Assembly: GCA_000004985.1 (NCBI GenBank)
Contig: GG738893.1
Length of the DNA: 64,000 bases
Source: Naegleria gruberi
Lineage: Eukaryota
Direction: 5' to 3' (one strand)
How positions within the stretch are numbered: the stretch's first letter is position 1; every line of letters begins with the position of its first letter. Below, piece after piece: positions 15,973 to 62,983 of this stretch. The notes beneath the pieces were generated by a model that saw only the letters and a list, made by a program, of their open reading frames with translations, was not told the origin of the DNA and made no database searches. The translations under genes were made by a program, and so were the position numbers.

Positions 15973-17367
15973 ATGACCAAGAAGAAAACAGGAATCATGA
16001 CCAACAACGCACCACCATCATCATCACAAATCAAACAACAAGTGCAAGACACAAAAAACCAAACAAGCCTCCTCAAAAAGCAACTCGACTCTATCGTACA
16101 ACAATATGAACAACAATTGGCAAATTTGGAAAAGTTAGAAACTGCCTTGAATGAGAAGGATGAACAAGTCAAAAGTAGAGAAATTCAAGTCGCTCAAAGG
16201 GAACAATCTGTAAAAGATANNNNNNNNNNNNNNNNNNNNNNNNNNNNNNNNNNNNNNNNNNNNNNNNNNNNNNNNNNNNNNNNNNNNNNNNNNNNNNNNN
16301 NNNNNNNNNNNNNNNNNNNNNNNNNNNNNNNNNNNNNNNNNNNNNNNNNNNNNNNNNNNNNNNNNNNNNNNNNNNNNNNNNNNNNNNNNNNNNNNNNNNN
16401 NNNNNNNNNNNNNNNNNNNNNNNNNNNNNNNNNNNNNNNNNNNNNNNNNNNNNNNNNNNNNNNNNNNNNNNNNNNNNNNNNNNNNNNNNNNNNNNNNNNN
16501 NNNNNNNNNNNNNNNNNNNNNNNNNNNNNNNNNNNNNNNNNNNNNNNNNNNNNNNNNNNNNNNNNNNNNNNNNNNNNNNNNNNNNNNNNNNNNNNNNNNN
16601 NNNNNNNNNNNNNNNNNNNNNNNNNNNNNNNNNNNNNNNNNNNNNNNNNNNNNNNNNNNNNNNNNNNNNNNNNNNNNNNNNNNNNNNNNNNNNNNNNNNN
16701 NNNNNNNNNNNNNNNNNNNNNNNNNNNNNNNNNNNNNNNNNNNNNNNNNNNNNNNNNNNNNNNNNNNNNNNNNNNNNNNNNNNNNNNNNNNNNNNNNNNN
16801 NNNNNNNNNNNNNNNNNNNNNNNNNNNNNNNNNNNNNNNNNNNNNNNNNNNNNNNNNNNNNNNNNNNNNNNNNNNNNNNNNNNNNNNNNNNNNNNNNNNN
16901 NNNNNNNNNNNNNNNNNNNNNNNNNNNNNNNNNNNNNNNNNNNNNNNNNNNNNNNNNNNNNNNNNNNNNNNNNNNNNNNNNNNNNNNNNNNNNNNNNNNN
17001 NNNNNNNNNNNNNNNNNNNNNNNNNNNNNNNNNNNNNNNNNNNNNNNNNNNNNNNNNNNNNNNNNNNNNNNNNNNNNNNNNNNNNNNNNNNNNNNNNNNN
17101 NNNNNNNNNNNNNNNNNNNNNNNNNNNNNNNNNNNNNNNNNNNNNACTAAGAAAACAAACACTTCTGATTTGAATTCAAATGTTTTAGGAACAAAATCAA
17201 ATCATTTCAAAGTTAAACTCATATCTAATTGTAATAGTTTAATGATTGGATTTGCACCTAAAAGTATTAATGTGAACGAAACAAATAATAATACAAAATG
17301 TGGATATTATTTATATACTACTACTGGAACCATTTATTCTCAGAATGGAGAATCAAACAAAAGCTAA
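15973..17367 (+). CDS. coiled-coil protein with a C-terminal SPRY-like segment, copy 1 of a local family; interrupted by a 926-bp N-gap
   Basis: The N-terminus is a Q-rich coiled coil (MTKKKTGIMTNNAPPSSSQIKQQVQDTKNQTSLLKKQLDSIVQQYEQQLANLEKLETALNEKDEQVKSREIQ). The C-terminus after the gap reads HFKVKLISNCNSLMIGFAPKSINVNETNNNTKCGYYLYTTTGTIYSQNGE, which is SPRY-like. The middle is unknown (N-run). Confidence 0.5.
   Translation: MTKKKTGIMTNNAPPSSSQIKQQVQDTKNQTSLLKKQLDSIVQQYEQQLANLEKLETALNEKDEQVKSREIQVAQREQSVKDXXXXXXXXXXXXXXXXXXXXXXXXXXXXXXXXXXXXXXXXXXXXXXXXXXXXXXXXXXXXXXXXXXXXXXXXXXXXXXXXXXXXXXXXXXXXXXXXXXXXXXXXXXXXXXXXXXXXXXXXXXXXXXXXXXXXXXXXXXXXXXXXXXXXXXXXXXXXXXXXXXXXXXXXXXXXXXXXXXXXXXXXXXXXXXXXXXXXXXXXXXXXXXXXXXXXXXXXXXXXXXXXXXXXXXXXXXXXXXXXXXXXXXXXXXXXXXXXXXXXXXXXXXXXXXXXXXXXXXXXXXXXXXXXXXXXXXXXXXXXXXXXXXXXXTKKTNTSDLNSNVLGTKSNHFKVKLISNCNSLMIGFAPKSINVNETNNNTKCGYYLYTTTGTIYSQNGESNKS
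16220..17145. other. assembly gap (926 N)
   Basis: Run of n characters. Confidence 1.
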
Positions 17368-17479
17368 TCAATGAATAATAAAAATTTGTTTATGAATATG
17401 ACTGTAAACTTCTTGAAATAACATTATTGAATAACATGATTTATTCTTATTTTGGCTATCGAGATTAAGTTTATTTCTT

Positions 17480-18973
17480 TTACAGGTCATAAATATCTAC
17501 ATGATCTGCTAAATTCATTTCTCGAATGTATTTTTCACCCTCATCGCTTATATTGTTGTCAACTGCGTTAAGTCTTGTTAATTGCTTCATTCCACTTAGG
17601 GCTTTAACGCCTTCGTCACCAATTTCATTGTAACCTATATCTAGAAAAGTTAATTGTTCCATTTCACTTATAAATTTGGCTCCCTCATCTCCAACAGCAT
17701 TGTGATAGATAGAAAGCTGTGCTAGGTGCTTCATTTCACTGATTTGGTTTGCACTTTTCTCTCCAATATTATTATGAGCAATTATTAGATACGTTAAATT
17801 ATCCATTTTACAGATATATTGTATACCTATTGGTGTAATATCAATACTAGAAACATTAAGTTCAGTTAATTGGTTCATTTCACTTATAGATTGGACTCCG
17901 TTATCCCTAATTCGATTATCAGAAATGTCAAGCTTAATTAAATTTTTCATTTGGCTAATGTGAATAGCCCCGTACGGTGTAATCAAATTTTCAGCTATAG
18001 AAAGATGAGTTAATTGATTAAATGATGAAATGTATTTTGTTCCATCCAATCCAATACAACAACTGTTCACATTAAGATCTGTTAATTGTTTCATTTCTCC
18101 AAAACACTTAACACCGTCATTAATAGAATTAAACCCAATATCGAGTTTCCGTATATTCATCATTTCACTAACATACTTGGCACCGTTCTCGCCTATATTA
18201 TTACTAGCAATATCAAGATTAGTTAATTGTTTCATTCCACTAATAAATTTGGCTCCTTCGTCACAAATATTGTTGCCAACAATTTTAAGACCAGTCAACT
18301 GTTTCATTTCACTAATAAATTTTGCTCCATCCATAGTAATTTCATTGGCACGGATATTAAGAAAAGTCAACTGTTCAAGGCCACTAATATACTTGGCTCC
18401 TTCTGGGCCAATATTATTATTAGCAATATGAAGTTGTTTCAATTGCTTCATTTCACCAATATACTTGGCTCCTTCTACACCAATATAATTACCCGTAATA
18501 AGAAGATAAGTTAGTGATTTCAATGATGGTAAATGTTTAGCAATATCAAATCCAAAATAACAGAAAGTCATATAAAGATCAGTCAATTGTTCCAATGAAC
18601 ATATATACTTGAATCCACTTGGATCAATCTTAGAATTAAATTCTATATTGAGTTTTTTCAATTCTTTCATCGAATCCAATATCTCACAATTAAATCCACC
18701 TTCATTCTCTATCACTCTTAGATTTGCAACATTTTCCAAAAACGGCAATTGACCAACCATTTCCAAATCACTACTACGTGTTATCGAGAGGTGTTTACAT
18801 GAATTTTTAATGACATGAAACCACTGTTTGGAAACCAATGCACACCTCTGTACAATAAATTTAAAATCATCGTGAAAAGATAAAATTTCAAAGAGTGAAT
18901 CGTCAGAGAATAGATTATTTTCTTGTATTTTCGAAAATGAAGAAGTGATGGAATGTTTTGGTTGTGTGATCAT
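17480..18973 (-). CDS. F-box-like / leucine-rich-repeat protein (RNI-type 28-residue LRRs, ~14 repeats)
   Basis: 497-aa ORF. The N-terminus has an F-box-like motif (LFEILSFHDDFKFIVQRCALVSKQWFHVI). Perfect RNI-type LRRs follow, e.g. NNIGPEGAKYISGLEQLTFLNIRANEITMDGAKFISEMKQLTGLKIVGNNICDEGAKFISGMKQLTNLDIASNNIGENGAKYVSEM. Confidence 0.8.
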   Translation of the reverse strand: MITQPKHSITSSFSKIQENNLFSDDSLFEILSFHDDFKFIVQRCALVSKQWFHVIKNSCKHLSITRSSDLEMVGQLPFLENVANLRVIENEGGFNCEILDSMKELKKLNIEFNSKIDPSGFKYICSLEQLTDLYMTFCYFGFDIAKHLPSLKSLTYLLITGNYIGVEGAKYIGEMKQLKQLHIANNNIGPEGAKYISGLEQLTFLNIRANEITMDGAKFISEMKQLTGLKIVGNNICDEGAKFISGMKQLTNLDIASNNIGENGAKYVSEMMNIRKLDIGFNSINDGVKCFGEMKQLTDLNVNSCCIGLDGTKYISSFNQLTHLSIAENLITPYGAIHISQMKNLIKLDISDNRIRDNGVQSISEMNQLTELNVSSIDITPIGIQYICKMDNLTYLIIAHNNIGEKSANQISEMKHLAQLSIYHNAVGDEGAKFISEMEQLTFLDIGYNEIGDEGVKALSGMKQLTRLNAVDNNISDEGEKYIREMNLADHVDIYDL

Positions 18974-31068: not shown

Positions 31069-32424
31069 ATGTTCTCAAATAGGGGATTAGCCATCACGTT
31101 TTCTGTAGTTGTTTTAGTTGTTGTGATAATTTCCTTCTTGTTCATATTGAGAGGAGACAATAGCCAAACAAATAATATTCGAAAGGAATCGGTAGTTTCG
31201 GTTTTCATACCACATTCGCGAGGAATTAAATATAATTTACAAGATTATGGTGATTATATGAAGACATCACAGAAACAAATATTGGAAATTGCCCAAGAAA
31301 TTAGAAAGAATGAAATTAAACTTCCGGAAACAGTACTTGTTTCACAGTTAATTGTTGGAATTTCGGCAAGAGATAAAGTTTATTATCTTGATTTGCTGAC
31401 AAGCATTCAAATGAATTTATTGAATCCATCAGTTTCTGAATATCATTTACTTCAAATTGACGAAACTTACAATTCTGAAATCATGTCATTGATGTTTGCT
31501 GATAAGAAGATTAAAATTCATTACATTCGTGAACAGTTGAATAGAGAAATATTTGTGAAATATTGCAATGAGCATTTGAAGGACAAACTCATTGTCTATT
31601 TGAATCAACCTGACATTTATTTTGATCATTCATTGATGCATGCTTCTAAATTAAAGAATGGAGAATTTGTGAAAATTCACAAGAGGATTAGTTTGGCAAA
31701 ACCATACGATTGTGAGGTAAGTTTAGGAACAATTTATAAATATTTATCAAGAGAATTATAGAATGGACAAGGAACTATTCCTGATGGTGCAATTTTCAGA
31801 ACCAGTGCTGATAAACCATTAGAATTGGGAACTGAACCAGATTGGAATGGACAATCAGTTATTTCAATGATTTTCAATGCATTCAGTGTTCATAATTGTG
31901 AAGTGTCAACAGCAATTACTGGATGGTTCTTGCACGATCCAACAAACATTGATAAGAAGGCAGAAAAGGAGGCAGAACTCAGAGAATTGGAACGTAAAAA
32001 ACAGGAAAAGATACGACAAGAAAAGTTGGAAATGGAAAGAAAAATCAAAGAAGCAGAGGAAAAGAAGAAGAAAATGGAAGAGGAGAGAAAACTCAAAGAG
32101 GAGCAAGCAAAGAAGCAAAAGGAAGAGGAAGAGAAAAAGAAAAAAGAAGAAGAAGAAAAGAAGAAAAAGGAAGAAGAGGAGAAGAAGAAAAAAGAGGAGG
32201 AAGAAAAGAAGAAACTTGAGGAAGAGAAGAAACTCAAAGAGGAGCAATTAAAAAAAGAAGAAGAAGAGAAGAAACAAAAGGAAGAACAAGAACGAAAGCA
32301 AAATGAAGAGAAGAAACTCAAAGAGGAAACTGAAAACAAGAAACTAGATGAAGAAAATCAATCCAAGTCAACCAACAACTCTTCAATTAGTGCCGCTACC
32401 TCATCCAATCCTAAATCTGCCTAA
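31069..32424 (+). CDS. type II membrane protein, paralog B, with a C-terminal K/E-rich charged tail. Exons 31069..31716 and 31762..32424
   Basis: Signal-anchor is AITFSVVVLVVVIISFLFIL. Shared motifs: LTSIQMNLLNPSVSEYHLLQIDETYNSE, KIKIHYIREQL, DKLIVYLNQPDIYFDHSLMHASK. A 45-bp intron (31717..31761, GTAAGT..TATAG) joins ...KPYDCE|NGQGTIPDGAIFRTSADKPLELGTEPDWNGQ.... The tail is about 120 residues of (E/K)n repeats (EEKKKKEEEEKKKKEEEE...). Confidence 0.6.
31975..32345 (+). repeat. coding GAA/AAG (Glu/Lys) low-complexity repeat within paralog B
   Basis: gaagaggaagagaaaaagaaaaaagaagaagaagaaaag... repeated. It generates spurious ORFs in other frames and on the opposite strand. Confidence 0.8.
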
Positions 32425-39195: not shown

Positions 39196-40697
39196 CTATT
39201 TTTTCGAAGATGGTTGTTTAGAATTTCTTCTAATCATTTCAACTGTGGTGGCAACATTTTGTTCAGTTTGTTGAAGGGCACCAGCTTTGTTTTCATTTCT
39301 ATTCTTCAATTGTCCACATGCACCAAGAATATCTTGTCCTTTGCTGTGTCTTACCGGTGCTGAGATTCCATTCTTGTAGAGGTATTTGGAAAATTCTTCA
39401 ATTCTTTCATCTGATGAGCATTCAAATCCACTTCCTTCCCATTCATTAAATGCAATCAAATTGACTGAACATGGAATGTCTTTAACCAATTTTACAAGAC
39501 GTTTGGCATCGTCAATAAAGTCATTCACATGATTCAACATGACATATTCGAAAGTGATATGTCTATTATTGTTTTTGAAGCATTGCTCTCTAAGGGTTTC
39601 AAATAAAACCTCCAGAGGGAAAATCTTATTAATTGGCACAATGTTATCTCTCAATTCATTGGTTGTGGCGTGAAGACTGATTGCTAAATTCACTCCCAAA
39701 TCATTGACAACATCTGGAATCAAGTTACATACTCCAGAAGTACTCACAATGATTTTTCTCTTTGAAATTCCACATCCATCACTCAAAATTTCAATGGCCT
39801 TTTTAACATTTTTGTAATTACTGCAATTAAAGGATTATGGTAAATTATTTAAATAATGAAATCAAAAACCTACTAGAGTGGTTCTCCTTCTCCCATAAAT
39901 ACAATATTATTAACAAATGATTTTTCAATAGAGGCTCTCTTTCTTTCTTCCTCTGTCATGTATATTGGAAAGTCCATCAATCTATGTTTAACTGAAACTA
40001 ATTGGCTTACAATTTCTGAAGCCAATAAATTTCTCTCAATAGGAGCTGTTCCAGTTCTGCAAAACTTACAATTCAATGAACATCCAACCTGACTACTCAA
40101 ACACACAGTTCCTCTTCCAAAACTATCACTAGCTTTTGGTGGATGGTAAATATATACTGCCTCAACTTTGTTAAATTGTTTTTGTTCTTTGAGAGTTGGT
40201 TTCTTCATTGGTGAAATTGCAACATCAGCATCAGAAATATTCTGTTGATTACCACATGATGACGATGCTGATGAAGTGGTGGAAACAATTGTACTATCAA
40301 CACTATTATCTGCAACAGGTGGCACATATTTTGGATTTTGAAAAGCAAATAAAAACTTTCTCGTGTGTTTATCCTTCTTGGATTTAATTTCTTCCTCAAT
40401 ATTTCCCAAAATATCAATAGAGTATAGTTCCGATAATGATTGACGATCGGATTTGGTCAAGACTGTAATATCATCAAATTTTCTGGCTCCAAACTTGTAT
40501 ATGAATTTATAAATTTCATTCAATCGGAATGATGATGCAACATGTGGATGAGTCTTTTCCAATATTTCCTTCATTTCTGTCTTGTTTAATCCCATCAGGG
40601 ATTTTCTAACAATTTGTGTTGAATAGAATCTGTGTTGAAAGTTTCCATTGATGACAATTTGTCGAGCACATAAATTTCCTAAAATCAATTTTTGCAT
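39196..40697 (-). CDS. rlmN-like: radical-SAM rRNA/tRNA adenine-C2 methyltransferase, RlmN/Cfr family, with an N-terminal presequence-like extension. Exons 39874..40697 and 39196..39820
   Basis: Full-length colinear match to bacterial RlmN. Ours: RGTVCLSSQVGCSLNCKFCRTGT (compare CVSSQVGCALECKFCSTAQ; CxxxCxxC radical-SAM cluster). Ours: FMGEGEPL|YNYKNVKKAIEILSDGCGISKRKIIVSTSGV (compare [41 protein letters not shown]). Ours: LAISLHATTNELRDNIVPINK (compare [21 protein letters not shown]). Ours: NLIAFNEWEGSGFE and GQDILGACGQL (compare DDIDAACGQL). The 53-bp intron 39821..39873 (GTAGGT...TTGCAG) sits exactly between GEGEPL and YNYKN. The N-terminal ~35 aa (MQKLILGNLCARQIVINGNFQHRFYSTQIVRKS) is basic and hydroxylated like a mitochondrial presequence. 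Confidence 0.85.
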
Positions 40698-41082
40698 TTT
40701 TTTTCAATCAAATTAAATTTTGAATTTTTTAATAAATTGGAATGAATAATGCTCTTTCCTAATAAATTCCATTCTGAAGAGTTGTGCTGAAATATGAAAT
40801 ACTATTCATTGTTAAATAACAACATTCTCAAACCAAACAAACCAATCATTGTTCTATCAATTAAAGAGCTAGACCATTCTTCTTCTTTCTAATAAATTCC
40901 TCAAATACAAATAGTTATCTTTGTAGTTTACTAACTACATCATCCTTTCCCTGTTACACACAGTCACTGAACTTTGCGTGATAGAGTGGTCGTGTCACTA
41001 AATTTGTTCTCAATCACTATCGAAACTCCACTTAACTCGTTACCCTGTCAGTTTAACTGCACTTCTATCACATACAAAAAAA

Positions 41083-41982
41083 ATGATGAAAAACCTCTCA
41101 TCCAAAATTATAGCAAGTTTGCTCTTGTTGAGTTTGGTTGTTCTCTTTACATTTGTTTCATCAACAAATGCCAAGAAGAGCGAATCATCCTTGTCAACTC
41201 AACTCGCCTCTGCTTTTAAACTTGAAAAGAAGCAAAGAAAGAAGACAAGAACATCAAAGAGAAGACCAGTTAGTAAACGTCTTTTGAAGAAGAGACGTCA
41301 ACTCTGTCGTAGAATTAGACTTGTCAAGAAGCAAATTAAAAAACTCACATTCAAGATTGCTAAAGCCTCTGATAGAGCCATGACCAAGATTGTTAGAAAG
41401 ATCAAGGTTAGAAAACTCTTGCTCCGTGCTTTGAGAAGAAAGCTCAGATCACTCAAGAGAAAGATTCAAAGAAAGCAAAGAAAGGTCAAGAAATCTCAAA
41501 AGAAGAATCGTCGTTTGACTTCTACCTTGAGAAAGCTCAAGAGAAAGGTCCTTAGATTGGCCAGAAAGCAACAACAAAAGAGAAGATCACCAAGAAGAAG
41601 ACCAAGAATTATCATCCTTGCATTCAATCGTGCTCAATTCTTCAACAAATTGGTGAGAAATAGCAAACATCGTTTCTATGGAAAGAGAGGATTCAGAAAG
41701 TATGCTCGTTTGTTGAGTTTACTCAAATTGGTCAGAGCTAAGAAGGCTGCTTTGACAAAGAAGAGAAACTTCTACGCAAAGAAGGAAAAGAGAATTGTCT
41801 CCTTGTTGAGAAAATTAAAACAAAGATGGTCTGTTGGAAGAAGTAGAAGATCATCAAAGAGAACCAAGATTACAAGAATTGTCTTGAGAAATGTTGACTC
41901 AAAGAAGAAGGTTAAACTCGTCATTCCAAAGAGATTGAAGAAGAAGGTTAAGAAGATTGTTGTTTATAGTGTTAAACAATAA
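41083..41982 (+). CDS. secreted polybasic protein (signal peptide plus ~270 aa that is ~45% Lys+Arg)
   Basis: Signal peptide MMKNLSSKIIASLLLLSLVVLFTFVSSTNA | KKSESS.... The mature part is nearly uniform K/R-rich alpha-helical-looking text (KRLLKKRRQLCRRIRLVKKQIKKLTFKIAKA...RKLKRKVLRLARKQQQKRRSPRRRPR...). Confidence 0.6.
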   Translation: MMKNLSSKIIASLLLLSLVVLFTFVSSTNAKKSESSLSTQLASAFKLEKKQRKKTRTSKRRPVSKRLLKKRRQLCRRIRLVKKQIKKLTFKIAKASDRAMTKIVRKIKVRKLLLRALRRKLRSLKRKIQRKQRKVKKSQKKNRRLTSTLRKLKRKVLRLARKQQQKRRSPRRRPRIIILAFNRAQFFNKLVRNSKHRFYGKRGFRKYARLLSLLKLVRAKKAALTKKRNFYAKKEKRIVSLLRKLKQRWSVGRSRRSSKRTKITRIVLRNVDSKKKVKLVIPKRLKKKVKKIVVYSVKQ

Positions 41983-42330
41983 ATATTTAATTTGAATTTC
42001 CTTAAATTGATGAAATAGTTTACAGTTTTTAGGTGGTATGGAAATAATTATTTAATTAGTTGATGATTATGAAAATAACTGTAATTACTTCGGTATGTTC
42101 TGTTAAAGAATGAACATTCTCGCGTTATTGAAACCAATCCAGTTCACGTAGGCGAATGATGACGATTCTTGACGAAACTCAAATAAAAGTTTGTATTATT
42201 AATATCAATAATAAAACAATAGAATTTTCAATCTTGCGTAACAAACAACCATTAGATCATCATAATTAAATTTTGTCACTTGTCTTAGCCAATAGGGAGC
42301 CTTTCGAATAATTAACCATCATAAAAAAAA

Positions 42331-43970
42331 ATGTTAACACGAAACAGAACAGACTCAAATTCTTCGGATCTTTCAACAGGAAGCTATGACAGCGGATCAG
42401 CAGGCAGTGGAAAGGAAAATCTCTTCAAACAAATGTATGCGTAAGTGTCTCCCAATATTACATATATATGTATTATTAATTTGTTGAAACAAAATCAAAA
42501 ACTTCGGAAAATCCTTACGATACATACAAATATCATCAAAATATTTATTATAATATGTGATGAATAATATATTAAAATAGTCAACGTGATTCCATTTCTT
42601 TAAAATCTGGCAAATTAGTAAAACAAGGTAAAACAGTGAAAAATTGGAAGGAACGTTTTTTCATGTTGAGAAGAGATGGACTCTACTATCATGAATTGAC
42701 TACAAAGGGACAAGCAGGAAAGCTGAAAGGTAAAATTTCATTTAAGGAAATCAAGGGAAATCCAACTTGTATTCAGAAAGTAACGGTTACTGTTAAAAAC
42801 AAACAGAGATCAGCAATTTCTATTGAACTTCCTGAACGTGTGTATTTTGTCTATTCTGAATCTGAAATTGAATTCAACGATTGGTACAAATCAATAATTC
42901 AGGTCTTGTCAATGAAGGATGAAGAACCAGCATCAAGATTGACTCCACGTACAGGAACACCAAATACTCCAACAAGTGGGACAATTACACAAGATATTTT
43001 CAATACAAAACCAGCAGCATCACCAAGTGGTGGAAGTGGAACTTTTGGAACACCTCCATTGAGAAGTTTTGATTTGAAGAAAGCTTCACCATCATCAGCT
43101 TCACCTCTTGATTATGGTTCATCACCAATGGATTTCAAACGTACTAATAGTAATTTATCGGATGTGACGACAAGTGATGATTCTGACACAAGCTCCTATC
43201 AAAAATCATTACATGGTGACTTGTTATCGGAATTTGATGAATTTGGTGCCGCAAGAAACAGTGATGCAGAGAGTGTTGATTTTGAACAGCAACCACAACA
43301 AAATGTTGGACCAATCTTGACTGAAGATGATGAGTACAATATTGCAATGAGTGCTGTTGAAATTTTCCTCAAGAAGGAAGAAGAACGAACACCACACGAG
43401 CAAGCATACATTATTGCTCTCAATGATTACAGAAGAAGGTTGGATGAACATGCAAGGAGAGCGAATGCTCGTCCAGAATATTCACTCGCTGTTGGAACTT
43501 GTATATTTTTAACACCAGAAAAGGATAGAACTATCTCAGAACAGGAATATGTTAAGGATGTATTGTCTGCTTTCTTTGAGGATCAAAAAGAATCTGATAA
43601 GAGTAGATTGCTACCTCTCAAGATTCAAATGGATATTGTAAAGGCAGCTAAATTACTCAAAGAAAAACCAGAAAATCAAAGAACAGAAGAAGAGAAGCAA
43701 TATATTTCAAGAGTTGAGGAAATACAGAGACAACTCAATAGATTCTCTCTCAAGAATGGTTTGAAAATCAATCACTCTCTTTCCACACTCCCTCTCCAAT
43801 TACTAACAACAGAGAAAACCAAAGAACCACCTCAACATCCACTCTATCACAATTGTGCCATTAGAGAAGCTGATCCACAAGCTGCAGATGATGAAAAACC
43901 AAATTTACTCTCCGTAGAAGAGAATGATTTCCTCCAGGTCTTTATCGATCAAAACAACCTTAATTTCTAA
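42331..43970 (+). CDS. PH-domain protein with a long disordered/acidic C-terminal region. Exons 42331..42440 and 42581..43970
   Basis: A 140-bp GTAAGT...AAATAG intron (42441..42580) joins MLTRNRTDSNSSDLSTGSYDSGSAGSGKENLFKQMYA|QRDSISLKSGKLVKQGKTVKNWKERFFMLRRDGLYYHEL...KISFKEIKG...VYFVYSESEIEFNDWYKSIIQVL. The PH signature is KNWKxRxFxL...W. Confidence 0.65.
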
Positions 43971-44497
43971 GTGAATGTTCCAAGAGAGATCTGTAATTTT
44001 ATAATAAAACAATTTGATTCAATTTCTACAACAGTAAATAGGATCATATGATAAATCTCACATTCTAATTGAGTCAAGCCACTCTATCACAACTCAACGT
44101 TGCGAATTGAGATACTCAATTTAATATTCTTCCTCAATGCTTTTTGATTCTTCACTGAGGAAAATTAAAATAGAACTGGGCGGTAAATGCCTTCGATTTG
44201 AGGTTCTATTTTCATTTTAAAAAAAATCTGTTGGAATATTCAGCATCCTCCCCATCAGAGAAATTTATTCAGCATTATCAGGTTGTGTTGGATTTATTAC
44301 CGACTGATATCAACAGCAAAAACAAGGTTTTGAATATAACGGATTGTGAATAATAGTATTTATTTTTGTACAGAGTCTCTCTAAGATAACTCTTTTGAAT
44401 TTGAATTGGTTGTACTTCCGAAAATTAATTGTGTGTGATGAAGAATCAATAATATAATTATTATTAATAGTACTAACAATTATTTAGAAAAAAACAA

Positions 44498-46344
44498 ATG
44501 GTAAAAAATTCATCACCTCCAACCAATGGAGAATATCAACCAACACGGATTGAATTATTTAAGCAAAATCATGATATTGCTTTTAATTTCTTGAAAAAGG
44601 GTATTGAACTTGATGAGAGCAAACAATTGGAAAAAGCCAGAGATTACTATCGTGAGGGTATGTAAAAAATTGTTGTAAAATTATTGTAACTGATGATTTT
44701 TTAGGCATTCAATCGATTCTACAAGCAGAAAGAGTTCCTCTCTCACAACAGGAAAGGTATCAAGCAAAAGCCATGTTGGATAAACTTTCAAAACACAAAA
44801 CCATGTTTTATGAGAGAGTGAAAGAAATTGATCAAATTCTTTTCAGTCAACAGCAAGCAAAACAAACTCAATTGGATAATCTCAGCAATAACAATGCAAG
44901 TGGAGGATTTTTCTCTGGGTTTATGAAAATGTTTTCACCACTCTCAACACCTCCTAACAGTTCATCCAACAATAATAGTAACACTCAACAAGCTATCTCA
45001 CAAGAAACAAGAAAATTGTGTAGTGTAAATAATAATAGACACGAGCCAATCTATAATCAATATACGACCAACAGCCAAGTGATTAGGAGCTTCCCAGCAG
45101 TTTCTTCAATTGGTCAATCTTCAACCAACATGTACAATAGTGTCAATATTTGTGATGGTATTTCTTCATCTGAGAAGAGAAGTCCAACACCACCAAGAAA
45201 TAGAAGTAATTCAAATGATAAGATTTTATTTGGCCACTATGATGCTCTTGGATCACTTCCACAAAACAACATGGGTCACTATCAACAACCACCTCAACAA
45301 TCATCTCAACAACAACAGCAACCTTTAGTTCCAAAACAAAATTCTGTAACTGCACTCAGAAATACTACCTCAGCAACATCATCAACAACAACAGCTAACA
45401 ATAAGAAACCTTCCCTTGATCAAATTCCAGAACTCAAAGGTGTTGATAGGAAACTTTTGGATCACATTTTGAATGAAGTGATTGAAACAAAAACAACTAA
45501 TTGGGATGACATTGCTGGACTTAAGGATGCCAAACAAACACTTCTTGAAACAGTAATCTTACCAAGTATAAGACCTGATCTTTTTAATGGACTGAGAGCT
45601 CCATGTAGAGGTATTTTACTTTTTGGACCACCTGGTACAGGTAAAACAATGATTGCAAGAGCATGTGCCTCTCAATGTAATGCTACTTTCTTTTCTATTA
45701 GTGCTGGGTCCTTAGTTTCGAAATATCATGGCGAAGGTGAAAAATTAGTGAGATGCTTATTTGCTGCTGCCAGATATTTGCAGCCGTCTGTGATATTTAT
45801 TGATGAAATTGATTCGATACTATCTGCACGTAGCTCTGAAGAACATGAGGCTAGTAGAAGAATGAAAACAGAGTTTATGATTCAAATGGATGGTGTTAGT
45901 AATATGAATGGGAAAGAAGATAGAGTTCTTGTAATGGGAGCTACAAACATTCCAACCGAATTGGATGAAGCTATTCTCAGAAGATTCACCAAGAGAATAT
46001 ATATACCTCTTCCTGATCATGCAGCAAGAGCATCACTCATTAAGCAACTTTCACATGGTCAAAATATGAGTTTGAGTGAAACCGATATCAACAAGATTTG
46101 TGTAGCCACTGAAGGATTTTCTGGAAGTGATCTGACAGCCCTGTGTAAAGAAACGTCAATGGTTCCTCTGAGAGAAATAAGTATGGATCAACTCATTTCT
46201 ATAGATGCACGAAAGATTAGACCAATCGTGCTCAAGGATTTCCAATCTTCTCTCGTGCATGTTAGACCTTCCACATCACAAGATACTATTAAGAAGTTAG
46301 AAAAGTGGAATGAAAGCTATGGAACTTTTGCAAAGGGTATTTAA
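44498..46344 (+). CDS. meiotic-clade AAA ATPase, spastin-like (MIT-like N-terminus plus AAA+ plus Vps4-C-like end). Exons 44498..44657 and 44705..46344
   Basis: [103 protein letters not shown]...RVLVMGATNIPTELDEAILRRFTKRIYIPLPD is almost collinear with human spastin ([102 protein letters not shown]...). The 47-bp intron 44658..44704 (GTATGT...TTTTAG) lies inside the MIT-like region. Confidence 0.85.
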
Positions 46345-55874: not shown

Positions 55875-56519
55875 TTGAGACAGAAGAGAATGGGAAAATA
55901 TTATGCTGTTCATAAGGGTAGAACACCTGGAATTTACTTTTCCTGGGAAGATTGCAAGAAACAAGTGGAGGGTTATCCAGGCAATGTCTACAAATGCTTC
56001 CCAACCGTTGCTGTGGCTGAGCTATTTGCCAAGAAGGGTCCATTGAAGTATAAACTAGCAGTAAGGACACTTCTTCATCGAGATGCATGGGTCATTTCGA
56101 GTGATGATGAAGATGAGTATATTAACAGTTGCAATGCTGTGAATAAGAACAATAAGAAGGATGATAAGGAAAGTAAAGAAACTACACTGGCTTCATCCAA
56201 TCCCGATAATATTAATAACAGTAACAATAGTGATCAAAAGATGAATAATACTCCAAGCAATAATAATGTTAACTCCAATAACAATAATAATAATAGTGAG
56301 AAAGATGATAATAGACCACCTATTTGCCAATTTTACATGTCACAAAGAGGATGTCGGTTTGGAGATAATTGCAGATTCTATCATCCTCCAAATGATGATT
56401 CTCCTGAACAATGTTATGATGATTCCGATTCCGATGATAGTGATGATGTACCATTGTGTGTCTATTGGCAAAGAGGATATTGTGGAAGGGGCAATTGTTG
56501 TCCATTCTATCATGATTAG
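55875..56519 (+). CDS. protein with an RNase-H1-type hybrid-binding domain (Cauli_VI/HBD), an N-rich linker, and two CCCH zinc fingers
   Basis: The HBD reads MGKYYAVHKGRTPGIYFSWEDCKKQVEGYPGNVYKCFPTVAVAELF (compare RNase H1 N-terminus [44 protein letters not shown]). The C3H1 fingers are CQFYMSQRGCRFGDNCRFYH and CVYWQRGYCGRGNCCPFYH. No RNase H catalytic domain is present. Confidence 0.7.
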   Translation: MRQKRMGKYYAVHKGRTPGIYFSWEDCKKQVEGYPGNVYKCFPTVAVAELFAKKGPLKYKLAVRTLLHRDAWVISSDDEDEYINSCNAVNKNNKKDDKESKETTLASSNPDNINNSNNSDQKMNNTPSNNNVNSNNNNNNSEKDDNRPPICQFYMSQRGCRFGDNCRFYHPPNDDSPEQCYDDSDSDDSDDVPLCVYWQRGYCGRGNCCPFYHD

Positions 56520-60885: not shown

Positions 60886-62983
60886 TTAATGCTTGTTGTT
60901 AAATTTACACTTAATGAGATATCTCAAATTGGCTTGGGCAGTATCGTAGATAATAAATTCATTGTACAACAATGAACCACTTCTTTGAACTTGTGTTGGT
61001 TTACCAAGTGGAACTTTAATCTTTTGACCACTACAACTAGAATCAATTTCCAAAAATTCATTATTATCTGGTTCAGTTCTACCTTGACCCCAACATGAAT
61101 GTAAATCTTTTGGCAATTTAGTAACAAATTCAGCTTGAGTTCTATTATAAGTATTACCCAAAGCAACTTCAGTAAGTAAAAGCAAACCACTATTGTTTGA
61201 CAAGTGAGCATGACAATAGTTTGCTGACTTACTACACATATCAGCAAAGTAAACACCCTTACCAACTATTAAATAATAATAAATTAACTTTGAAATAACT
61301 TGAATAACTTGAAACTTACACATATAACCAGTAGCTGGAGCTTCAGGAGGAGCAATTCTCAAACCTTGAGAAAGGATACCAACAAAGTTTGTACTTCTAG
61401 AACCGTGGAAAAGAAGTTGCTTATTACTAATACTATCACTCTTAGCAACATATTTTTCTGTTTCACCATGTCTATTAACAACGAAAGCATCTTCTAATTC
61501 AAGAGTATAATAAGAGTGAGTTGGAGCGTGAGTATTTTGAATAAATTTGTTAATCCACTTCCATTCTTCAGAATCCTTAGCAATTGGTGTAATATCAGTC
61601 TTCAAATCACTATAAATTGAATCAACAATATTGACATCTGACTTTTTAGAAATAATCTTAGAGGCAATTTCAAGTTCACTTAATGATTCAACTAACTTGA
61701 TCTTTTGTTCCAATTGTGTCTTGGTTCTAATAACTATTTTTAAAATTAATTATCATCATTTAAAAAGTGATATTAAATAATAATAACTTACTTGGTGGAA
61801 CTTGTCTATGTCCAAATTGATGAGGAATAATAGTGTAGAATCTTGATGAAAGTGATTCCAAATCATCATCATCATTTTTACCATCAATTACATCTTGAAT
61901 CTTTTTAAGAACTTCATAACCACCTTGAACTTGTTTCTTTGAAAGTTTACCAAGTGGCATCTTATTTGTATCAATTTCAAATTCACGTAAAGTTTGATCA
62001 ATAAAAGATTTGTTACTGATAAATTTAACTAAATCTTGAACTCTAGAATCAAGTTTAGATTCTACAACCTTCTTTTCTTTCTTTTCTTCCTTAGCTTCAT
62101 CATCTTCTTCTTCTTTTTCATCATCATTATCTTCACTATAATCAATTTCTACAAAATCATATTTTCCATTCTTAAATTTGAATGAAGATCTCTTTGACCA
62201 TTCATTACCAGTCTTATCTTTAAACTTTTTAGCAAAGTCATCTTTAGCTTTTTGTAAACTAGCCATCTTTGATAACTTAGATTGTCCTTTTGCAGAAACT
62301 CTACCCCATCTATTAAAAACATAGTATGAAGATCCACTTTCAATCAATTGGATAATATAGAATTTGTTATTATTATTTCCAATATTTGTTTGATTGAGAG
62401 TAGCACTCCAAATATCATTTCCTTCAATATAAACTTTACCAGAAGTTTGCATACCAGATTCTAATAATTAGAATAAATTATTTTGTTAATTAATTAAATA
62501 ATTTTCGTGAACATACCTTCATCAACAGGAACTTTACCAGTTGAAACAACCTTCTTCTTCTTAGAGGCTGGTTCTTCAACCTTTTCTTCTTCTTCTTCCT
62601 CTTCCTCCTCTTCTTCTTCCTCATCTTCTTCTTCAGCCTTTCTCTTCTTTGAAACCTTCAATTCAAATGATGCAGAGTCAAGCCTTTGTTAAAATGGAGA
62701 TAAATTCCATCAATGATCATCATAATTATACCTACAATTTTTCTTGTTCAGCCGATTGATTAATAAAATCACTATTAACAACTTTAATTTTCTTAGTAAA
62801 GGCTGATTTGACTGTAGCTCCATTTTCATTGACAGCCTTCTCTGTAGTAACCAAATAATTGGTATCATTCTTTACGGATTTGTGAATTGTACCTCCTTCT
62901 TCTTCGATCAATTCAACAAGTTTGGATTTTTCACCTCCGTTGATGCCAACAAAAGCAAAGTTCAAATCATCAAATATACCCAT
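60886..62983 (-). CDS. poly(ADP-ribose) polymerase, PARP1-type core (BRCT, acidic/NLS linker, WGR, helical domain, catalytic) but lacking N-terminal zinc fingers. Five exons: 62736..62983, 62517..62683, 61792..62460, 61320..61733, 60886..61265
   Basis: BRCT: MGIFDDLNFAFVGINGGEKSKLVELIEEEGG...TNYLVTT. Linker: KKRKAEEEDEEEEEEEE...KKKK. WGR: GKVYIEGNDIWSATLNQTNIGNNNNKFYIIQLIE..YYVFNRWGRVSAKGQ (compare PARP1 [28 protein letters not shown]...YWIFRSWGRVGT). HD: [22 protein letters not shown]...SSRFYTIIPHQFG (compare [22 protein letters not shown]...SNRFYTLIPHDFG). CAT: LLFHGSRSTNFVGILSQGLRIAPPEAPATGYM|FGKGVYFADMCSKSANYC...LLLLTEVALGNTY...LLYNEFIIYDTAQANLRYLIKCKF (H-G-S ... Y ... E triad). Introns are 52, 56, 58 and 54 bp (GTAGGT/GTATGT/GTAAGT ... 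TAG). Confidence 0.85.

Follow-up and report, generated by a model that had tools for sequence, protein, structure and literature searches.

Cathelicidin LL-37, the cecropins and the magainins, together with their precursors, are host-defence peptides in which an ER signal is followed by a Lys/Arg-rich helix of high hydrophobic moment, and the product of NAEGRDRAFT_81042, a gene of the amoeba Naegleria gruberi, is predicted to have the same layout. The likeness extends further, in that the protein would probably adopt no structure before contact with a polyanionic surface and carries many dibasic positions that are potential processing sites. However, host-defence peptides are 12-50 residues long and often come with an anionic pro-region, whereas the mature chain predicted here has 269 residues, a charge of +107 and no acidic pro-segment, and it shares no sequence homology with them. 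By analogy, it would work most like a host-defence peptide of the cationic amphipathic kind, only five to twenty times larger, although the protein falls outside that class in its size and its pro-region. Eosinophil major basic protein (MBP) and eosinophil cationic protein, granule polycations of animal phagocytes, are also signal-bearing and very basic, and are stored and released against microbes. Both have a globular fold (C-type lectin and RNase A) and a pI of ~11, and an acidic pro-piece neutralises MBP, whereas NAEGRDRAFT_81042 has neither a predicted globular fold (AlphaFold2 pTM 0.26) nor an acidic partner region.

With linker histone H1, the protamines and the kinetoplast-associated H1-like proteins (KAPs) of the related Euglenozoa, the protein shares an extreme Lys/Arg content and a near lack of acidic residues, and like them it would be expected to condense polyanions. 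Those proteins are nuclear or mitochondrial and lack a hydrophobic ER signal, whereas one is predicted in NAEGRDRAFT_81042; the winged-helix domain of H1 (PF00538) gave no Pfam match in it, protamines are short and Arg-rich, and no H1, protamine or KAP has an amphipathic helix of 104 residues such as the one modelled here. p180/RRBP1 and kinectin resemble the Naegleria protein in placing an N-terminal hydrophobic segment directly before a long, basic, helix-rich domain. They have acidic N-flanks, with the N-terminus lumenal and the C-terminus cytosolic, as well as tandem decapeptide repeats and long acidic coiled coils, whereas in NAEGRDRAFT_81042 the N-flank is basic and neither tandem repeats nor homology to these receptors was found. 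None of the Pfam, phmmer, PDB, Foldseek and repeat tests supported an identity as linker histone, protamine-like or ribosomal protein, or p180-type receptor. Lastly, as with other orphan genes, no homologue is detectable outside one species, and the locus sits at a break in synteny and differs structurally between samples; what sets it apart from typical young orphans is its length of 299 codons and the strongest codon bias within the surrounding 64 kb.

Gene structure and codon usage

The window, by which we mean the whole stretch of 64,000 nucleotides that was analysed, is nuclear DNA of N. gruberi with a GC content of ~33%. A complete single-exon open reading frame of 299 codons followed by TAA occupies positions 41083-41982 on the plus strand, the strand of all parts of the gene given below, and it translates to the complete sequence of NAEGRDRAFT_81042 (XP_002673039.1, EFC40295.1, UniProt D2VS81) without a single difference. 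The database entry, which is located on a 337-kb scaffold, is annotated as a hypothetical protein, and this is what was already known of it. What is added here is its orphan status as checked against sister genomes, its position at a breakpoint, its strong codon bias, a predicted amphipathic helix of 104 residues and the existence of a signal-less variant. As an annotated hypothetical protein of putative function, it is of modest value at present.

The neighbours are ordinary cellular genes. Upstream, the start of a divergent, two-exon gene for an RlmN-like radical-SAM protein is found at 40697, leaving an intergenic region of 385 bp (40698-41082); downstream, a PH-domain gene begins at ~42332 and is followed by spastin at 44773-46341. 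The intergenic region contains only very short upstream ORFs, provides an A-rich context for the start codon (caaaaaaaATGATG) and holds an in-frame stop 28 codons upstream of the ATG.

A number of observations bear on whether the frame encodes a protein. An open frame of 299 codons did not occur in any of 20,000 dinucleotide-preserving shuffles of the ORF, in which the longest frame had 213 codons and the mean was 74. The opposite strand and the alternative frames were ruled out as coding, as each of the other five frames contains 8-32 stops, and an origin from a DNA tandem repeat or microsatellite was likewise ruled out, as the ORF sequence contains no tandem repeat. The codon bias is the strongest among the 33 long ORFs of the window, with a Wright's ENC of 31.6 where GC3 predicts 58.0, a shortfall far greater than in any other of them. 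Compared with the neighbouring genes, AAG makes up 75% of the Lys codons (43% in neighbours), TTG and CTC 83% of the Leu codons (42%), GTT and GTC 95% of the Val codons (62%) and TTC 70% of the Phe codons (35%), while Arg is written with AGA and CGT only and the GC3 of the ORF is 0.40. Furthermore, the longest run of A is 6, against a mean of 8.8 under synonymous resampling (P=0.014), suggesting that A-runs are avoided. It was reported that low ENC in Naegleria and Willaertia often marks highly expressed genes, which was taken as translational selection (PMC11702301). Supported by several independent signals of this kind, NAEGRDRAFT_81042 looks like a genuine protein-coding gene, and its codon bias and avoidance of A-runs suggest, indirectly, that it is probably well expressed.

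The N-terminal segment and the polycationic chain

The protein begins with the arrangement MMKNLSSK / IIASLLLLSLVVLFTFV / SSTNA | KK, in which the bar marks a candidate signal-peptidase site after A30. Residues 1-8 (41083-41106) form an n-region with a net charge of +2 from K3 and K8, or +3 when the free amino terminus is counted. They are followed by a hydrophobic core of 17 residues, I9-V25 (41107-41157), with a KD19 of 2.52 and a summed Hessa dG of about -3.8 kcal/mol, and by a polar c-region at residues 26-30 (41158-41172). The core is the only membrane-competent segment in the protein, the next best having a KD19 of 0.56. The first-pass annotation had described a textbook signal peptide. 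By rule of thumb, the basic n-region, the hydrophobic core and the polar c-region bear this description out, but the length of the core, which in the h-region of a cleavable signal is usually ~7-15 residues and so less than a transmembrane span, places it on the border of the signal anchors. The cleavage that had been proposed after TNA was upheld by the rule-based prediction, with T at -3 and A at -1 before KK in keeping with the small-residue rule; VSS|TN is an alternative candidate site.

Between the c-region and the polycation lies a low-charge spacer rich in Ser, Thr and Ala (residues 31-45, KKSESSLSTQLASAF, 41173-41217) with a net charge of +1. A review states that positive charge N-terminal of the core favours a cytosolic N-terminus and translocation of the C-terminal part (PMC8657811). 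Since the N-flank (+2/+3) carries more positive charge than the 15-residue stretch that follows the core (+1), the flank-charge rule predicts a cytosolic N-terminus and a translocated C-terminal part. From residue 46 onward positive charge accumulates steeply, reaching +9 within 35 residues of the core, and this rise could favour the opposite orientation. Movement of a chain through Sec61 is reported to be arrested or slowed in vitro by positively charged clusters (PMC4791137, citing Fujita 2011 and Yamagishi 2014), and full translocation of a chain with a charge of +107 is therefore not to be assumed.

The mature chain had been described as ~45% Lys/Arg. Its extreme Lys/Arg content is evident, but the figure itself is too high, as residues 31-299 contain 41.6% (62 K and 50 R) and the whole protein 38.1%, with 30-residue windows peaking at 53%. 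Residues 31-299 include just 5 D/E, giving the net charge of +107, and a single Cys (C75), as had been noted. It counts against secretion that hardly any secreted protein is known to exceed 40% Lys/Arg while lacking an acidic pro-region to neutralise it. The chain holds 48 dibasic positions, and the longest run of Lys/Arg is 4, although the depletion of longer runs was not significant (P=0.08). Among the peptides contained in the protein are SESSLSTQLASAFK, IIILAFNR and IVVYSVK.

The K/R-rich stretch that had been quoted as an example of heptad-like text, RKLLLRALRRKLRSLKRKIQRKQRKVKKSQKK, is located at residues 110-141, inside a segment (residues 65-168, 41275-41586) where the hydrophobic periodicity indeed exceeds that of every shuffle. 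The periodicity power at 3.4-3.8 residues is 2.63 there against 0.55 +/- 0.28 in shuffles (0/5000 reach it), and the mean helical hydrophobic moment over 18 residues is 0.585 against 0.296 +/- 0.05 (0/3000). The moment rises to 0.78, on a hydrophobic face that is narrow and has a mean hydrophobicity of -0.4 to -0.9. The periodicity peaks at ~3.6 residues, compared with the 3.5 of a two-stranded coiled-coil heptad with its complementary e/g charges, and the flanking positions are all basic; with acidic residues numbering only 5, a homodimer of this segment would be strongly repulsive. AlphaFold2, run on the single sequence, predicted helices at residues 4-54, 65-168 (pLDDT mostly >90), 183-193 and 201-249, and a tail at 249-299 of low confidence with a strand-like alternating pattern. 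The model thus depicts long helices without a globular fold, and the polycationic amphipathic alpha-helix at 65-168, which we infer to be unstable alone, would most likely fold on a polyanion.

These properties can be joined in a reading that we prefer and put forward at low confidence, in which the signal is cleaved and the mature polycation binds polyanions on a secretory or phagolysosomal route. The N-terminus would engage SRP and Sec61 with its N-terminal side cytosolic, and the near-neutral spacer of 15-20 residues would let translocation begin before the polycation arrives. The signal would probably be cleaved after A30, leaving a mature polycation of 269 residues that would follow the secretory or the endolysosomal/phagolysosomal route. 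Charge repulsion would keep this chain unfolded when alone, with its amphipathic helices forming only upon binding to a polyanion. In a bacteria-eating amoeba the likeliest polyanions would be bacterial envelopes, met in the phagosome or in the medium, which the protein might bind, aggregate or permeabilise as cationic amphipathic host-defence peptides do, and the dibasic positions may permit cutting into smaller peptides, perhaps beforehand. Polyphosphate and the acidic polysaccharides of cyst walls and mucoid material are alternative ligands.

The expression level, orientation, cleavage, compartment, ligand and activity assumed in this reading are inferred, and the antimicrobial role is drawn entirely from physical chemistry together with the lifestyle of the organism. 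The antimicrobial, polyanion-binding and cell-penetrating roles that the first-pass annotation had raised are likewise putative, and its interpretation is supported in part. A secreted product is plausible judging from the predicted features of the chain, and a lumenal placement of the polycation, whether cleaved or held by a type II anchor, falls somewhat short of an even chance. The fuller proposal, that a recently evolved and abundant chain of 269 residues and +107 passes Sec61, is released, and binds, aggregates or kills prey bacteria or condenses a lumenal or extracellular polyanion, appears decidedly improbable. Provided that the protein is produced and crosses the membrane, it would rank among the most cationic secretory proteins known and would lend itself naturally to testing the reported arrest of Sec61 by positive charge. 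A bacteria-eating amoeba could use it as a lineage-specific tool against bacteria or for binding polyanions, a tool for which the human-pathogen relative N. fowleri has no gene, and, if released and acting on prey, it would represent a protist effector for feeding or defence of a type not described before.

The alternative that comes next is that the N-terminal segment is a reverse (N-out/C-in) or stalled signal anchor, which would remain uncleaved in the membrane of the ER or the nuclear envelope with the helices facing the cytosol or nucleoplasm. The ligands would then be RNA or ribosomes, as for p180, chromatin or rDNA plasmids, as for an inner-nuclear-membrane tether, or acidic lipids. The length and hydrophobicity of the core fit an anchor well, and the chain, K/R-rich, with many NLS-like runs and almost no acidic residues, has the composition of a nucleic-acid binder. 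The massive positive charge that begins 20 residues downstream fits the positive-inside tendency (PMC8657811), and the reported arrest of translocation by positive clusters (PMC4791137) would stall the chain. The flank charges described above nevertheless predict a cytosolic N-terminus, SSTNA|K is a good signal-peptidase site, and the decapeptide repeats, the acidic coiled coil and homology of the p180, kinectin, LEM or LBR type are all lacking. On this evidence we regard a cytosolic-facing anchor as somewhat unlikely, only a little behind the preferred reading. A polycation exposed to the cytosol would add a new kind of membrane tether, holding RNA, ribosomes or chromatin, in an organism that has few of the tethers already known.

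Orphan status, synteny and a variant form

Homologues of NAEGRDRAFT_81042 were looked for on several levels. A word-index search of 5.8 billion clusters and an exhaustive phmmer search of 1.84 billion representatives together returned only the protein itself, the variant P0002 described below and one chance match, the latter being P0003, a non-basic repeat protein that was rejected as a homologue at an E of 3e-4. A Pfam scan that accepted E values up to 10 gave AAR2 (E 0.92) and DivIC (E 8.9) only, both far below the cut-offs, and phmmer against the PDB gave only Nesprin-1 (E 0.34). In a Foldseek comparison of the AlphaFold2 model with the PDB, the best match was a non-significant one to a chain of a pre-60S particle (E 9.6), and matches of this sort would carry little meaning because the model consists of long helices. 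Scans of JGI metagenome DNA with each half of the protein as query, and of IMG/VR with the full-length protein, gave no match, and an origin from a giant virus or other mobile element is therefore unsupported. For both flanking genes, the same database did yield orthologues in N. lovaniensis, N. fowleri and Willaertia magna, and it is this recovery from the sister taxa that makes the negative result for the orphan meaningful. As far as these searches reach, NAEGRDRAFT_81042 is, in the operational sense, a taxonomically restricted gene, confined to the N. gruberi lineage.

The neighbourhood was compared as well. Contigs covering ~86 kb around the PH-domain and RlmN-like orthologues of N. lovaniensis and W. 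magna (L002-L005) gave no tblastn match and held no ORF of at least 80 aa with at least 22% K+R, except for one alternative-frame ORF of 83 aa, and this syntenic absence has to be read together with the rearrangement of gene order at precisely the position of the orphan. In N. lovaniensis the order from the PH-domain gene to spastin is kept, the RlmN-like gene lies ~20 kb away, and the position upstream of the PH-domain gene is filled by two genes for multi-pass membrane proteins. Since the gene order of N. lovaniensis departs there, the orphan sits exactly at a synteny breakpoint. Whichever reading of the protein is preferred, the locus provides a clean case of strong codon adaptation in an orphan that sits at such a breakpoint.

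A second form, which may represent an allele, a paralogue or another strain, was found on a Logan contig of 952 bp from run ERR1078381 (L001), which is 99.3% identical to positions 41593-42180 of the window. The identity block covers the C-terminal 129 codons (~130 residues), that is residues 171-299 (41593-41979), and the 3' flank (41983-42180), while the upstream 339 bp of the contig show no relationship, occur nowhere in the window and are just as AT-rich. The ORF on this contig, P0002, encodes 175 residues with a different N-terminus of 45 residues that lacks a hydrophobic signal, and its C-terminal part is 97-98% identical to that of NAEGRDRAFT_81042. The comparison shows that residues 171-299 behave as a seemingly separable module and that the locus appears structurally unstable, or polymorphic, between samples. 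P0002 would slightly favour readings that place the C-terminal module in the cytosol or nucleus, among them the uncleaved anchor with its helices facing the cytosol, under which a single compartment would serve both forms.

Remaining alternatives

The breakpoint and the variant also bear on a further proposal, according to which NAEGRDRAFT_81042 is a young, lineage-specific ORF created at a rearrangement, its function unsettled, which would be weakly or not expressed, structurally polymorphic, and annotated only for being long and open. Consistent with this are the failure to find a homologue, be it in N. lovaniensis, N. fowleri, W. magna or elsewhere among the sequences searched, the absence of the gene from the ~86 kb of matching neighbourhoods, its position exactly where the order in N. 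gruberi departs from that in N. lovaniensis, and a 5' half that differs in the second sample (ERR1078381). The literature record points the same way. The main texts that were searched mention neither the locus tag and its accessions nor ERR1078381, and the accession is absent from the searchable parts of supplements to omics studies of N. gruberi (copper, mitochondrial SRP, chromatin proteomics and mitochondrial T2SS), although absence from proteomics is a weak negative because a K/R at every 2-3 residues yields few tryptic peptides. How K/R-rich frames arise is illustrated by a nearby ORF of 124 aa at 31877-32251, an alternative frame with 55% K+R in purine-rich, E/K-coding DNA.

What a recent and non-functional ORF would not be expected to have is the strongest codon bias of the window, beyond what GC3 accounts for. 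The frame is moreover four times the mean length in shuffles, the hydrophobic residues keep a coherent helical phase across 104 residues, A-runs are avoided, and the succession of signal, neutral spacer and polycation seems organised. In light of these features, the proposal of a young ORF without settled function is considered unlikely.

Returning to the topology of the protein, it was also considered that the N-terminal segment might be an uncleaved type II anchor, with the N-terminus cytosolic and the polycation displayed on the lumenal or extracellular face of the Golgi, a lysosome or the plasma membrane. Signal anchors of the Golgi type have a short basic cytoplasmic tail followed by a transmembrane core that contains Phe. 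The short basic tail and the Phe-containing core of 17 residues in NAEGRDRAFT_81042 resemble this arrangement, and the orientation rule gives the same outcome for such an anchor as for a signal peptide. As a good -3/-1 site and a c-region that is short and polar speak for cleavage, and the chain has no lumenal catalytic or folded domain, a type II anchor is judged very unlikely. Least probable of all, to the point of being hardly credible, is a mis-modelled gene in which an upstream exon was missed and the true product is a basic protein of the nucleus, nucleolus or mitochondrion, for which the composition, like that of nucleolar and ribosomal extensions, and the non-significant Foldseek match to a pre-60S chain might speak, but no ribosomal or nucleolar family was matched in Pfam or the PDB, and the objection of a missed exon, raised in the first-pass annotation, found no support in a 385-bp gap that holds only very short ORFs, an in-frame stop 28 codons upstream of an ATG in good A-rich context, and a database product that is itself a single-exon protein of 299 aa.

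A variant copy of the C-terminal module

The polycationic gene NAEGRDRAFT_81042 (window 41083-41982, plus strand) is matched by L001, a 952-bp Logan contig from run ERR1078381. Positions 1-952 of this contig were compared with window 41593-42180, giving 99.3% identity over a match that spans the last 129 codons of the gene together with its 3' flank. In L001, the copy is abutted by 339 bp of DNA that is unrelated to the window and equally AT-rich, and from this junction arises a 175-aa ORF (P0002) that lacks the hydrophobic N-terminus. L001 also holds, on the same strand, the end of a different gene that lies upstream. The variant may be a paralogue, or it may come from another allele or strain. 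When a 76-aa query that included 48 exact P0002 residues was run through the word-index protein search, no candidate sharing three 5-residue words came back; as P0002 itself was missed, negative results of this index should not be trusted for short queries.

Within the gene, an imperfect direct repeat of 39 nt (77% identity) was found at window 41230-41268 and 41566-41604, the first copy encoding KQRKKTRTSKRRP and the second KQQQKRRSPRRRP. Each copy sits directly before one of the two helix-rich halves of the protein, and the start of the L001 homology (41593) falls at the second copy. The repeat may be a chance low-complexity match.

A polybasic reading frame was also encountered elsewhere in the window. 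A low-complexity E/K-rich ORF with EEEEKKKK runs in its translation lies at 31825-32424 on the plus strand, and a shifted frame of it holds a 124-aa ORF (31877-32251) with 55% K+R, which shows how polybasic frames arise from purine-rich coding DNA in the N. gruberi genome.

Neighbouring genes in sister taxa

Upstream of the gene, and adjoining it in N. gruberi, lies a two-exon RlmN/Cfr-like radical-SAM gene with a long N-terminal extension (window 39196-40697, minus strand), which presumably encodes an rRNA methyltransferase of an organelle. Its N. lovaniensis, N. fowleri and W. magna orthologues are conserved at 60-71% identity (sister-taxon loci compared: L003 10001-11691 and L005 10001-11329), and the N. 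lovaniensis one lies about 20 kb from the PH-domain gene. Downstream, the PH-domain gene is followed by spastin; together they occupy window 42332-46341, which was set against L002 10001-15478 and L004 8075-11567. They are neighbours in both N. gruberi and N. lovaniensis, the latter having one further gene, of 107 aa, in the interval. In W. magna the two stand side by side but are divergently oriented. Upstream of the PH-domain gene, the gene order differs among all three species.

A PARP gene (window 60886-62452, minus strand) appears as two ORFs, one with WGR and PARP_reg and one with the PARP catalytic domain, a split presumably caused by a short intron. In W. magna the PARP orthologue shares one contig with the RlmN-like gene, and thus long-range synteny is kept.

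Other features of the window

GC content falls sharply to 16.6% in window 16001-18000, where a biological AT-rich island was ruled out by a run of N. This assembly gap (about 16220-17150) translates as X, and the 464-aa and 322-aa "ORFs" across it were rejected as artefacts. At 55875-56519, on the plus strand, a single ORF carries an RNase H1 N-terminal (Cauli_VI) domain and CCCH zinc fingers (Pfam E values 3e-19 and 2e-10), which is an unusual domain pairing.
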